10,661 bases of DNA from a virus. Its lineage: Duplodnaviria; Heunggongvirae; Uroviricota; Caudoviricetes. Location: the IMG/VR virus record IMGVR_UViG_2703718674_000018, one strand, 5' to 3'. This document shows, piece after piece, positions 6,516-8,351 of this stretch (the first letter of the stretch is position 1; every line of letters begins with the position of its first letter). Under the pieces are notes generated by a model. It did no database searches and had not been told where the DNA came from. It worked only from the letters and a program-made list of their open reading frames with translations. The position numbers and the translations under genes were made by a program.

Positions 6516-6714
6516 AAAGACTACACATAGCAATGTCGTTATTTACAACCGGAGGCGCACTCCCACCATTTAAATTTAACAGACAAGACCGACTCTTTAT
6601 GGATACCGGAAATGCGCCTTCGTGTTGTGCCCGGTTTTATTTCACCACCTCCGGGCTTTGGTGGCCTCGGCTATACCCCTACAGCAAGAATATTGAATTA
6701 ATCCAATAAATGGT

Positions 6715-6867
6715 TTAGCTGGTATTTTTGGCAAGCCAGCGACGTGCGCCAGCTTCGGTTTTAAACGATTTGCTTTTGGTATACGTCATGGCGGTGAATG
6801 TGCCGTCCTGATTGGGAAACACGCCACATACCAGAGATTCGTTGTTGCCAAGATCGATAGTATCCAT
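6715..6867 (-). CDS. Small protein, 50 aa, YdaF-like (first gene of the leftward operon)
   Basis: ATG at 6867 preceded by GAGG (about 6 nt) gives MDTIDLGNNESLVCGVFPNQDGTFTAMTYTKSKSFKTEAGARRWLAKNTS (50 aa); the ORF-track version starts with TTG at 6930. Assignment to ydaF is by position and vague recollection only. Confidence 0.5.
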   Translation of the reverse strand: MDTIDLGNNESLVCGVFPNQDGTFTAMTYTKSKSFKTEAGARRWLAKNTS

Positions 6868-7047
6868 GTTGACCTCATTTCCCCTTAACGCCGGGTGGCG
6901 GAACGTTTTATCTACTGCGCTTTGTATCAATCAACAACTGCCGTCATGTTCGTATGCCTCAGGCTGGCTACTTAGCCCTGTTCAGTGGCTGGATAACTCG
7001 AGGTATTGTCCTGCCGTTCTCTGGTGGGGCGTTGTTTGGATATGCTT

Positions 7048-7089
7048 ATTAAACACAATGCGTTTTCTTGTATCAACACGAAATGTGTT
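7048..7089 (-). promoter_or_regulatory. Candidate leftward early promoter (PL-like) with overlapping operator-like palindromes
   Basis: Minus strand reads TTGATA (plus 7071-7076), a 17-nt spacer, then TTTAAT (plus 7048-7053), close to the sigma70 consensus TTGACA-N17-TATAAT. Palindrome AACAC-GAAAT-GTGTT (7075-7089) overlaps the -35; imperfect AACAC-AATGC-GTTTT (7052-7066) overlaps the -10. Confidence 0.4.
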
Positions 7090-7118
7090 TTGTGGTGGGT
7101 GTCATATGATGATGGTAC

Positions 7119-7143
7119 AAAAAAAGCCCGCTGATAGCGGGCT
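7119..7143 (-). terminator. Rho-independent terminator downstream of the repressor gene
   Basis: Plus strand AAAAAAA-GCCCGC-TGATA-GCGGGC-T; on the minus strand this is a 7-bp GC-rich stem (AGCCCGC/GCGGGCU) with 5-nt loop followed by UUUUUUU, about 30 nt after the repressor stop (7174). Confidence 0.65.
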
Positions 7144-7173
7144 GATTGGCATATTACTGTGATAGCAAGATCA

Positions 7174-7593
7174 TTACTCCGGTGGGGGATTATCTTTAAG
7201 CCTGCCTCTCAAATATTTTTCTACATACTCATCGATTTCTTTTAGCCGGACTTCAAATAGCTCAATCATTCGTTGTTGTTCTGAGCCCGGTAGCTGGTTA
7301 AACAACTCAAGAAGTTTTCGTTGGGATTCATTTAACCACAATTCAGAAGATTCCTGTTCTCCAAAGAGGAGCTCAGGAGGAGATATGCCAAGTGCCTTTC
7401 CCAATACGACAGCGTCATGCACTCCAACATTTCTGCTACCCGCCTCATAGTTACCTATACGCGATTGCGTCCATCCGCAGATTTCAGCAAGTTTTCCTTG
7501 AGATAAACCAAGCTTCTGCCTGCGCTCTTTAAGACGCATTGCAATTTTGTCATTGAGCCTACTAGCGGCAATTTTTTCGTTTTCTTTTTCCAT
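7174..7593 (-). CDS. Prophage repressor, XRE-family HTH, 139 aa (cI/RacR analogue; no LexA-type cleavage motif recognised)
   Basis: ATG at 7593 preceded by AAGGA. HTH region LKERRQKLGLSQGKLAEICGWTQSRIGNYEAGSRNVGVHDAVVLGKALGISPPELL. Divergent from the Cro-like gene across a 96-bp operator region and followed by a terminator. Confidence 0.8.
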   Translation of the reverse strand: MEKENEKIAASRLNDKIAMRLKERRQKLGLSQGKLAEICGWTQSRIGNYEAGSRNVGVHDAVVLGKALGISPPELLFGEQESSELWLNESQRKLLELFNQLPGSEQQRMIELFEVRLKEIDEYVEKYLRGRLKDNPPPE

Positions 7594-7689
7594 TGCATCC
7601 TTGTATCACGAATCGTGATTTACACAAAACACAAAACATCTTGACCGTATAACACAAGATGTGTTTAAAATTGTCATCGGAGGTTTTCA
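7594..7689. promoter_or_regulatory. Divergent promoter/operator region (OR/PR-PRM analogue) between repressor and cro-like gene
   Basis: Two 15-bp palindromes of the same family: ATCAC-GAATC-GTGAT (7605-7619) and AACAC-AAGAT-GTGTT (7651-7665), plus ACAAAAC direct repeats (7623-7637). Plus-strand -35 TTGACC (7641-7646) with -10 TTTAAA/TAAAAT (7664-7671). GGAGG SD at 7679-7683 ahead of ATG 7690. Confidence 0.6.
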
Positions 7690-7932
7690 ATGAACAAAAT
7701 TTCAACATATCGAAAACAGCTTGGGCTGTCTCAAAGACAACTTGCTGTTCAGTTAGGGTGGATACAAAGCCGACTGGCAAATTACGAAGCAAATTTTCGT
7801 ACCCCTGGACTAGAGGAGTGCAGAAAAATTGTTTCTACCCTTAATCGGCTTGGCGCTCATTGTGGACTTGACGATGTATTCCCCCCAGACGGTAAGCATA
7901 GCGAAAACAGCATAGGAGCGGTTGATTCATGA
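7690..7932 (+). CDS. Cro-like HTH transcriptional regulator, 80 aa (first gene of the rightward operon)
   Basis: ATG 7690 with GGAGG SD; HTH segment YRKQLGLSQRQLAVQLGWIQSRLANYE. Divergent from the repressor; stop overlaps the next start (ATGA at 7929-7932). Confidence 0.8.
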   Translation: MNKISTYRKQLGLSQRQLAVQLGWIQSRLANYEANFRTPGLEECRKIVSTLNRLGAHCGLDDVFPPDGKHSENSIGAVDS

Positions 7933-8351
7933 AAATCAGGCATGAGCACATCGAATCAGTGTTGTTAGCCCTGGCAGCCGAAAAAGGGCAGGCGTGGGTC
8001 GCTAACGCAATTACTGAAGAATATCTGCGCCAGGGGGGCGGCGAATTGCCCCTTGTACCAGGCAAGGACTGGAACAATCAGCAGAATATCTATCACCGTT
8101 GGTTAAAAGGTGAAACGAAAGCGCAAAGGGAAAAAATTCAGAAACTGATCCCTGCGGTTCTGGCAATTCTTCCGCGCGAGCTGCGTCACCGACTCTGCAT
8201 CTTCGATACCCTGGAACGCCGTGCATTACTGGCGGCGCAGGAAGCGTTGAGTACGGCAATTGATGCGCATGATGATGCAGTCCAGGCCGTTTACCGGAAA
8301 GCACATTTCAGCGGTGGTGGGTCGCCCGGCGATTCTGTCGTAGTGCATTGA
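7929..8351 (+). CDS. ydaT: YdaT-like protein, 140 aa (position and coupling of lambda CII)
   Basis: ATG 7929 preceded by AGGAG and overlapping the upstream stop. The 140-aa length matches what I recall for Rac YdaT. Function (CII analogue versus toxin) is by recollection of the literature, not visible in the sequence. Confidence 0.7.
   Translation: MKIRHEHIESVLLALAAEKGQAWVANAITEEYLRQGGGELPLVPGKDWNNQQNIYHRWLKGETKAQREKIQKLIPAVLAILPRELRHRLCIFDTLERRALLAAQEALSTAIDAHDDAVQAVYRKAHFSGGGSPGDSVVVH

Follow-up and report, generated by a model that had tools for sequence, protein, structure and literature searches.

Inverted repeats flanking the repressor gene of a Rac-site lambdoid prophage as likely operators of its immunity switch

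The viral record IMGVR_UViG_2703718674_000018 is a stretch of 10,661 nucleotides (hereafter the window) in which inverted repeats with the core CAC-N5-GTG lie on both sides of a gene for a small helix-turn-helix (HTH) repressor, and this raises the question of whether the repeats are the operators of a lambda-like immunity switch and, if so, which protein reads them. The DNA is identical to part of the chromosome of Escherichia coli O157:H7 strain 493/89 (NZ_CP038412.1), where it forms the left half of a lambdoid prophage inserted beside ttcA, i.e., at the Rac site. The genes run in the order intR, xisR, rcbA, ralR, recT, recE, a ydaE-family gene, kil, a DUF1391 gene, the gene for the 139-amino acid (aa) HTH repressor, a divergent gene for an 80-aa Cro-like HTH protein, a YdaT-family gene and replication genes, and the intergenic region between the repressor and cro-like genes is 96 bp (7594-7689). 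The same immunity type is present in 153 of 5,426 complete E. coli genomes (about 3%), including O157:H7, O145, O103, and O111 Shiga toxin-producing strains. Judged from sequence comparison, it is very likely that the repeats are the operators of the immunity switch of this prophage. A first-pass annotation had proposed operators at both promoters flanking the repressor gene, following the logic of the left and right operators (OL and OR) of lambda, and that proposal finds support in the layout of the sites across genera, in the way they track the HTH type, in the shared core of mEp213 and VT1-Sakai, in the invariance of the arms and in the recognition helix of the Cro-like protein. The two genes and the five proposed sites are as follows.

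7174 to 7593, minus strand: repressor gene, 139 aa, protein WP_000410105.1, Pfam HTH_3 match with E=4.7e-13, N-terminal HTH_XRE domain and DicA/Gifsy-type C-terminal helical hairpin
7690 to 7932, plus strand: Cro-like gene, 80 aa, protein WP_001033914.1, Pfam HTH_3 match, HTH with recognition helix LGWIQSRLANYEA
7605 to 7619, no strand assigned: putative repressor-proximal operator in OR3-like position, ATCACGAATCGTGAT, best match to the position weight matrix (PWM) described below with 20.1 bits
7628 to 7642, no strand assigned: putative degenerate middle operator in OR2-like position, AACACAAAACATCTT, PWM rank 10, proposed from its recurrence at a fixed offset
7651 to 7665, no strand assigned: putative operator inside the spacer of the PR-like promoter, in OR1-like position, AACACAAGATGTGTT, PWM score 19.4 bits
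7075 to 7089, no strand assigned: putative left operator adjoining the -35 of the PL-like promoter, AACACGAAATGTGTT, PWM score 19.7 bits, in the position of OL2 of mEp213
7052 to 7066, no strand assigned: weaker of the two putative left operators, located in the PL-like spacer and -10, AACACAATGCGTTTT, PWM score 9.4 bits, proposed from position and conservation

The sequences at 7605-7619, 7651-7665, 7075-7089, and 7052-7066 had been reported in the first-pass annotation and each was verified at its position. Three of them had been called perfect 15-bp palindromes, a description that holds for 7605-7619 (7+1+7) only, as 7651-7665 has six of seven complementary arm pairs (6+3+6) and 7075-7089 five of seven (5+5+5); in 7052-7066, where GTT replaces GTG, four of the seven pairs are complementary. 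The feature that is perfect in sites 7605, 7651, and 7075 is the 5+5 arm pattern A-(A/T)-CAC ... GTG-(T/A)-T. Enrichment of the motif over background, to which the same annotation had looked, depends on how the motif is drawn. The flanked pattern ANCACN5GTGNT, the definition of which was drawn partly from the hits themselves, occurs three times in the window (7075, 7605, and 7651) against 0.15 expected, and none of 200 shuffles reached three, whereas the bare core CAC-N5-GTG is not enriched (3 against 2.0 expected, with 69 of 200 shuffles reaching 3), and an argument from over-representation of the core was therefore dropped. All three core matches are found in the non-coding DNA on the two sides of the repressor gene, which comes to about 230 bp or about 2% of the window, for which simple arithmetic gives a chance of about 1e-5. 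When the window was scored with a PWM trained on 30 sites of other genera and phages and on zero E. coli Rac-site sequences, sites 7605, 7075, and 7651 ranked first to third among about 10,600 positions. The mean best score in null simulations was 10.1, and the level of 19.4-20.1 bits was reached in 1 of 500. Site 7052-7066 ranked fourth, with a score expected 0.81 times per window.

The same sites are found beside homologous repressors in other genera. A protein search returned repressor homologues at 55-87% identity across Enterobacterales, and their recognition helix is nearly invariant within the family and is not the same as that of DicA. Repressors 57-84% identical to that of the window are encoded in loci of Citrobacter (two species), Dryocola, Pectobacterium, Kosakonia, Enterobacter, Salmonella, Serratia, and Klebsiella, and their genes have exact-core sites on the upstream as well as the downstream side. 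The layout is shared as well: one site lies 11 bp before the repressor ATG, the next follows 46-49 bp on, between a TTGAC -35 and the cro-like gene, and the downstream site is mostly just past the repressor terminator, fused to or beside another TTGAC, with that of Pectobacterium about 1.1 kb downstream. Substitutions were counted in an alignment of the window with four other E. coli lineages, and with Salmonella as well over the right operator. The four better sites have 40 arm columns, all of them constant, whereas 9 of their 20 N5 columns varied, as did 29 of 82 columns in the rest of the intergenic DNA (Fisher 1e-5 and 2e-6, P values that overstate independence as the loci behind them are related). 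Invariant arms on either side of a drifting N5 are the pattern expected of a dimer that reads the arms and not the centre.

The DNA-binding and C-terminal modules of these repressors are also found in other combinations. In eight loci (L009-L017 except L016), the hosts of which are Serratia, Sodalis, Kluyvera, Pluralibacter, Dryocola, Phytobacter, and Franconibacter, the C-terminal domain of the repressor is kept (...LFRQLP..EQ.RMIDLF..RLKEIDEYVEKYLRGR), the HTH is unrelated (GISKADMARIAGVTPQAVNGWF) and the Cro protein is a different one. No CAC-N5-GTG adjoins the repressor gene in any of the eight, and several have other palindromes instead. These are TAAACA-N3-TGTTTA in L009, where it flanks the gene on either side, and in L010, and GTAAAC-N5-GTTTAC ahead of the gene in L012 and L014. 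Here the DNA-binding and C-terminal modules have clearly been shuffled as domains, and the swaps fit the finding that heteroimmune Gifsy repressors share antirepressors (Lemire et al., 2011). The opposite arrangement is seen in mEp213 and in VT1-Sakai, the Stx1 prophage Sp15 of O157 Sakai, where S24-type cI proteins match the HTH of the window's repressor (tblastn, about residues 12-83) at 58 and 49%, respectively. There are three exact-core sites at OR of mEp213, spaced 23 and 24 bp, and three at OL, with an overall spacing of 22-24 bp. The GenBank record of VT1-Sakai (AP000400) lists three 'putative operators' 24 bp apart, ACACACAATTTGTGATT, AACCTCAATTCGTGTAC, and AATCACGTTGCGTGTTA, the middle one differing from the core at one base and the other two matching it exactly, and it places a putative operator inside the putative PR. 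As the sites are absent with another HTH and present with the same HTH on an S24 scaffold, the site class appears to belong to the HTH module, whatever the C-terminal domain attached to it.

The class with this module (GW..SR.GNYE), represented by mEp213, VT1-Sakai, and Citrobacter phage Chris1, has features that the window also displays, i.e., a homologous HTH and 15-bp CAC-N5-GTG sites every 22-25 bp. Within it the outer bases of the arms covary with both recognition helices: AACAC arms go with the repressor helix W[AT]QSRIGNYE, GACAC or GCCAC arms with WATASRVGNYE, and TTCAC arms with WSGA[PS]RVANYE together with the Cro helix WNQPRLANYE. The likeness of the window to mEp213 and VT1-Sakai extends to the CAC-N5-GTG core, the A/T-rich outer flanks, the spacing of 23-24 bp, the placement of a site between TTGAC and -10, and the homologous Cro. 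The differences are that their repressors are about 213 aa with a LexA/S24-type C-terminus and presumably cleavable with RecA, where that of the window has a helical C-terminus of DicA/Gifsy type, that their cII is of lambda type, and that OR and OL of mEp213 have three exact-core sites each. The nearest precedent for the site sequence class is the 'putative operator' annotation of VT1-Sakai, the status of which is unpublished.

The repressor itself has the features of the short DicA/Gifsy repressors, with about 130-140 aa, an N-terminal HTH_XRE domain and a short helical C-terminal domain homologous to that of DicA. The NCBIfam DicA model NF007257 aligns from residues 15-133 of the repressor to 4-131 of 135 (E=1.4e-15) with 57.2 bits against a cut-off of 101, and BLASTP gives 29% identity to DicA of K-12 (E=2e-15). 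Since the alignment is full-length but remains below the cut-off for DicA, the protein has the architecture of DicA and is not DicA. Pfam matched only HTH families and no Peptidase_S24 domain in the repressor, which places it outside the LexA/S24-type CI proteins; the DNA-binding module is all that it has in common with them. An AlphaFold model with a predicted local distance difference test score (pLDDT) of 88 has a five-helix HTH domain, a linker and a C-terminal helical hairpin, and the recognition helix lies at about residues 43-51 (WTQSRIGNYE). The modelled HTH superposes at about 1 A on P22 c2, 434 repressor and Cro, and C.AhdI, which are dimeric readers of inverted repeats. A Foldseek search was uninformative on the C-terminal hairpin; SinR/SinI, at rank 6, had a root mean square deviation of 8.5 A, which is too poor.

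The placement of the sites is best seen against the predicted promoters, named here after the rightward and leftward early promoters (PR and PL) and the repressor maintenance promoter (PRM) of lambda, and the terminator.

7641 to 7671, plus strand: PR-like promoter, -35 TTGACC at 7641-7646, -10 TTTAAA at 7664-7669 (17-bp spacer) or TAAAAT at 7666-7671 (19-bp spacer)
7594 to 7608, minus strand: PRM-like extended -10, TGaTACAAG from 7608 to 7600, formed by the right arm of 7605-7619 and followed by 6 nt and the repressor ATG
7125 to 7143, minus strand: intrinsic terminator of the repressor transcript, 8-bp stem with 6 GC pairs followed by a T-run
7046 to 7076, minus strand: PL-like promoter, -35 TTGATA from 7076 to 7071, -10 TTTAAT from 7053 to 7048 (17-bp spacer) or TAATAA from 7051 to 7046 (19-bp spacer)

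The divergent region contains the two sites that had been noted in it and, in addition, the degenerate site 7628-7642, so that the earlier count was one too low. In this third site one half is good (AACAC on the plus strand, GTGTT on the minus strand); it lies 23 bp from each of the strong right-hand sites and shares 2 bp with the PR-like -35. The AACAC half shows no change across E. coli and Salmonella, and the opposite half varies. A weak middle site at +22 to +25 bp recurs in 11 of 11 loci, each time within the top 2% or so of the positions of its own locus, and this recurrence indicates that the right operator consists of three sites with centres at 7612, 7635, and 7658, 23 bp apart. Site 7605-7619 is invariant across five E. 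coli lineages, Salmonella differing from them only in N5, and every locus has its homologue 11 bp ahead of the repressor ATG. The centre of 7605-7619 is at -19 when the A of the repressor ATG (7593) is counted as +1. The arms of 7651-7665 are invariant and its N5 is variable, and a counterpart lies between TTGAC and -10 in all loci and in VT1-Sakai. The arrangement is one of divergent repressor and cro-like HTH genes with a short intergenic region that carries two strong and one degenerate related inverted repeats. In all loci the distance from the operator to TTGAC is fixed, and a GGAGG Shine-Dalgarno sequence is present at 7680-7684 ahead of the Cro-like gene. In Citrobacter and phage Chris1 (L003, L004, and L025, at about 1396-1410) a fourth exact-core site, CTCACATATAGTGTT, is seen 26 bp past the site in the PR spacer and a few bp upstream of the cro-like start codon; the window has none there.

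The PRM-like element also bears on how the repressor mRNA begins. In 12 of 12 loci TGn and TAnnnN are followed by 6 nt (7 in one locus) and the homologous ATG, and a conserved Shine-Dalgarno sequence ahead of this ATG was not found among the 12, a geometry which suggests that the extended -10 promoter yields a leaderless repressor mRNA. With a start at the A of the ATG the centres of the right operator would be at -19, -42, and -65. Leaderless mRNA is known for lambda cI. Leaderless repressor transcripts have also been reported for paaR2 and racR (PMC8630535; PMC9638921). By the same rule of a TGn-hexamer, 6 nt and ATG, the cI start codons in mEp213 (L023, PV340538; 1498-1506) and VT1-Sakai (L024, AP000400; 1489-1503) look mis-set. 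The likely start of mEp213 cI is the second ATG (MNRTETIAARIK...), and VT1-Sakai cI probably starts at an upstream ATG, so that the protein would begin with MKTMHEIIGERIK... as in the homologues of Pectobacterium and Enterobacter.

On the other side of the repressor gene, past the terminator at 7125-7143 that separates the gene from the PL-like promoter, a second set of repeats lies beside TTGATA at the leftward early promoter and is conserved in relatives. The placement given for these sites in the first-pass annotation was borne out, as 7075-7089 shares 2 bp with the -35 TTGATA and 7052-7066 occupies the spacer and reaches the -10 region. The arms of 7075-7089 are invariant and its N5 is variable within E. 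coli, and the junction GTGTTGAC is also found in Salmonella, Citrobacter, Dryocola, Serratia, and mEp213. The support for 7052-7066 comes from its position and its arms and not from its score: it is exactly 23 bp from 7075-7089, a second left site at +23 to +25 bp is present in 7 of 7 loci, and the arms are invariant across E. coli while positions 9-10 vary. Inspection of the window by eye one more 23-bp step on gave no third OL site; in Citrobacter a half-site is present at that place. The PL-like promoter would drive DUF1391, kil, recE, recT, xis, and int. Its -35 differs at position 7072 (A vs G) between 493/89, with TTGATA, and the other four E. coli lineages in the comparison, which have TTGACA; in the 493/89 lineage TTGATA may act as a promoter-down variant at this early-left promoter.

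Taken together this suggests the following scheme. Dimers of the 139-aa repressor, and very probably also of the Cro-like protein, would bind the 15-bp sites, the A-(A/T)-C-A-C arms of which are centred 10 bp apart and so lie on one face of the helix. Repressor bound at the right and left operators would block the PR-like and PL-like promoters and keep the prophage silent, with the early rightward genes (cro-like, ydaT-like, and replication) and the early leftward genes (DUF1391, kil, recET, xis, and int) shut off. Excess repressor, or Cro, on 7605-7619 would shut off repressor synthesis as at OR3 of lambda, which would provide negative autoregulation and, after induction, shut-off by Cro. The middle site 7628-7642 is placed such that bound repressor could activate its own promoter, as CI of lambda does. 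Self-activation of the repressor has also been reported for DicA and PaaR2 (PMC3441716; PMC8630535). Induction, the least supported step of the scheme, is probably mediated by an antirepressor and not by RecA-dependent cleavage, since the repressor is without an S24 domain and belongs architecturally to the DicA/Gifsy class. Neither a convincing LexA box nor a candidate antirepressor was found in the 19-kb locus L001.

Which of the two HTH proteins reads the sites is the second part of the question. The HTH of the Cro-like protein is 45% identical to that of the repressor over 42 aa (E=2e-10), and the two recognition helices are nearly identical, LGWIQSRLANYEA in the Cro-like protein and CGWTQSRIGNYEA in the repressor (GW.QSR[IL].NYE). 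A homologous Cro with GW.QSR[IL].NYE is present in all motif-bearing loci from which a Cro open reading frame was recovered (it was not recovered in L006 and L008), as well as in mEp213, VT1-Sakai, and Chris1, and the Cro-like protein would very probably read the same sites as the repressor. The strongest competing explanation is that only one HTH protein, either the Cro-like protein or the repressor, reads the sites and that the other uses different sequences that have gone unrecognised. It draws on the fact that repressor and Cro types co-occur in every locus, so that the comparison cannot tell which protein reads the sites, and on the precedent of Qin, where DicA bound only one (Oc) of three operators predicted from sequence in vivo (PMC3441716). 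The near identity of the helices argues against such a division, as does the footprinted CP-933P, in which PaaR2 and YdaS protect overlapping sequences (PMC8630535), and the 96-bp divergent region shows no further family of palindromes; we regard a division as unlikely.

The co-occurrence of the two protein types is one of several observations that weigh against the repeats being operators as proposed here, and the relatedness of the loci noted above for the P values is another. A Yersinia homologue has only half-sites left. The count of the bare core in the window is at chance level, and the degenerate sites 7052-7066 and 7628-7642 are not significant on PWM score alone. None of six exact site strings, searched in both orientations, had a match in the searchable literature. 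With regard to the promoters, a generic sigma-70 scan of the window found the terminator and did not call the PR-, PL-, or PRM-like promoters, so that their assignment relies on conservation across loci, and the -10 hexamers at 17-bp spacing (TTTAAA and TTTAAT) are without the usual A at position 2, which makes the register of the promoters uncertain.

It is very improbable that the palindromes are bound by some other factor, either the YdaT-like CII analogue or a host transcription factor. Nothing direct speaks for this; ATCACG...CGTGAT holds TCAC and GTGA, which are superficially like the half-sites of CRP, and a CRP-like reading was rejected as the order of the half-sites is reversed relative to CRP sites (TGTGA-N6-TCACA). 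The sites track the phage HTH type over eight host genera and vanish when the HTH is swapped, and mEp213 and VT1-Sakai carry CAC-N5-GTG sites, yet have a lambda-type cII and not YdaT. YdaT of CP-933P, for its part, recognises TTGATT-N6-AATCAA (PMC9986795), a near-copy of which lies elsewhere in the window, at 7922-7939. That the palindromes arose by chance or from the composition of AT-rich promoter DNA and bind no specific protein, as the bare-core count and the two of five proposed sites that fail on score would allow, is scarcely credible when all three core matches fall within about 2% of the window, a PWM trained on foreign sites puts them in ranks 1-3, their arms are invariant with variable spacers, and the layout recurs in other genera and phages with otherwise diverged intergenic sequence.

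With CAC-N5-GTG repeats as operators, the switch resembles that of lambda in many respects. Repressor and cro are divergent, the right operator has three sites, a leftward early promoter on the far side of the repressor gene has operators as well, the site nearest to that gene overlaps the gene's own promoter, and the repressor mRNA of the window is probably leaderless, as in lambda. The OR sites of lambda are 23 and 24 bp apart from centre to centre, compared with 23 and 23 bp in the window, and OR2 of lambda is centred at -42 of PRM. The sites differ from those of lambda in being 15 bp (5-bp arms and N5) and not 17 bp long and in having an unrelated sequence. The repressor, with 139 aa, is without the S24 autocleavage domain, and the CII analogue is YdaT-like. 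Furthermore, the best palindrome of the window is at the OR3-like position, the middle site is the weakest, and OL has two recognisable sites compared with three in lambda.

DicA-DicC of Qin and the Gifsy repressors GfoR, GfhR, and GtgR share with the window's repressor the two-domain architecture and the size, and Qin also has the gene order of a cro-like gene, a divergent repressor gene, a leftward promoter and a DUF1391 gene. Repressors of this family are not cleaved and are inactivated by antirepressors, which heteroimmune members may share even though their operators differ (PMC3121763; Rem in Qin, PMC10448788). The recognition helix of DicA is different (HVSVSQWE), and the DicA operator Oc, TTGTTAG-N6-CTAACAA (TTGTTAGTCATAACTAACAA), is unrelated to CAC-N5-GTG (PMC3441716). 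The prophage of the window is of the same family as Rac and is integrated at the same site, ttcA. The immunity regions of RacR/YdaS (Rac in K-12) and PaaR2/YdaS/YdaT (CP-933P) have the same divergent layout of a repressor, a YdaS-type Cro and a YdaT-type CII with OR-type intergenic operators, CP-933P also having a set of operators on the PL side. They differ from the window in the type of repressor protein, and there is no paaA2-parE2 toxin-antitoxin pair downstream of the window's repressor. The RacR operator is (T/A)TAGGC-n3-GCCTA(T/A) (PMC9638921), and the PaaR2/YdaS operators are 18-bp repeats with the consensus GTTTAGTAA (PMC8630535). The studied relatives with the same gene layout, i.e., RacR, PaaR2/YdaS, and DicA, thus use OR/OL-type operators of other sequence (PMC9638921; PMC8630535; PMC3441716). 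The operator consensus of RacR, PaaR2, or DicA was considered as the identity of the sites and rejected, as none was present by eye in the two intergenic regions, for which no pattern scan was run.

An ordinary prophage switch with the expected lambda logic will not surprise a specialist, and it is a well-supported addition to a very familiar kind of system. It would define the immunity specificity of this prophage type as the 15-bp code A-(A/T)-CAC-N5-GTG-(T/A)-T, and it points to one DNA-binding module common to RecA-cleavable cI repressors and short repressors of the antirepressor type, which makes heteroimmunity and cross-immunity of co-resident prophages, including an Stx1 phage, directly testable. 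The natural variants in specificity, with AACAC, GACAC, and TTCAC arms and matching changes in the helices, could serve as orthogonal pairs of repressor and operator. The reading with more reach, if true, is a speculative one, namely cross-talk with Stx1 prophages of the same operator class. In Shiga toxin-producing E. coli the module is joined to an S24 cI open to SOS cleavage in VT1-Sakai and, in the Rac-site prophage, to a DicA/Gifsy-type repressor that is presumably not cleaved. Cross-binding is conceivable since OR3 of VT1-Sakai (ATCACGTTGCGTGTT) fits A-N-CAC-N5-GTG-N-T exactly, the Cro helices of VT1-Sakai and the Rac-site prophage are almost identical (WIQSRLANYE vs WGQSRIANYE), and both regions occur in at least one complete genome. 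The VT1-type immunity region is present in 105 genomes, and NZ_CP027766.1 (E. coli 2013C-3342) carries both (1807794-1808454 and 5358464-5359223), this immunity region at 98.9% identity and the cI/OR of VT1-Sakai type at 100%. It is tempting to speculate that the Rac-site repressor or its Cro binds the operators of the Stx1 prophage, which could confer a partial immunity insensitive to SOS or alter the induction of the Stx1 phage, or that the reverse takes place, but we consider this doubtful.

Some further observations were made in the window and in the loci compared with it. Downstream of the PL-like promoter, at about 6900-6990 on the minus strand, several genera share a conserved block (AGTAGCyGCCrGCGGCATACGAA ... 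GCGCAGyAG ... AACGTTCCGCC, with a small hairpin after it), as seen in L003 (about 2050-2150), L007, L008, L018, L021, and L022. An N-like gene is absent between PL and the first open reading frame, and the block could be a nut- or put-like leader element. The block had no match in Rfam, and RNAalifold on this conserved leader gave a weak structure in which a covariation signal was absent. An Rfam scan of 6650-7750 returned only a Trp_leader match below threshold on the terminator hairpin, which was taken as chance.

Two records have sources at odds with their sequence. At the end of a contig labelled 'Sphingomonas sp.' (L016, NZ_JBNNOB010000016.1, 1-300) there is the C-terminus of this enterobacterial repressor family together with an exact OL site, AACACATTTCGTGTT, and PP818812.1, 'Actinobacillus phage vB_Apl-pPE4', is 100% identical to the flanks of the window. 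Both look like E. coli-derived sequence, through contamination or mis-assignment.

The sequence TTGATT-N6-AATCAG is found twice in the window, at 7922-7939 and 1504-1521, against 0.01 expected. The high-affinity footprinted YdaT site in CP-933P is TTGATTN6AATCAA (PMC9986795), and the copy at 7922-7939 has the same place and nearly the same sequence, by which analogy it would be PRE-like. The copy at 1504-1521 is 27 bp upstream of the start of xisR, the position of the CII-dependent PI promoter of lambda.

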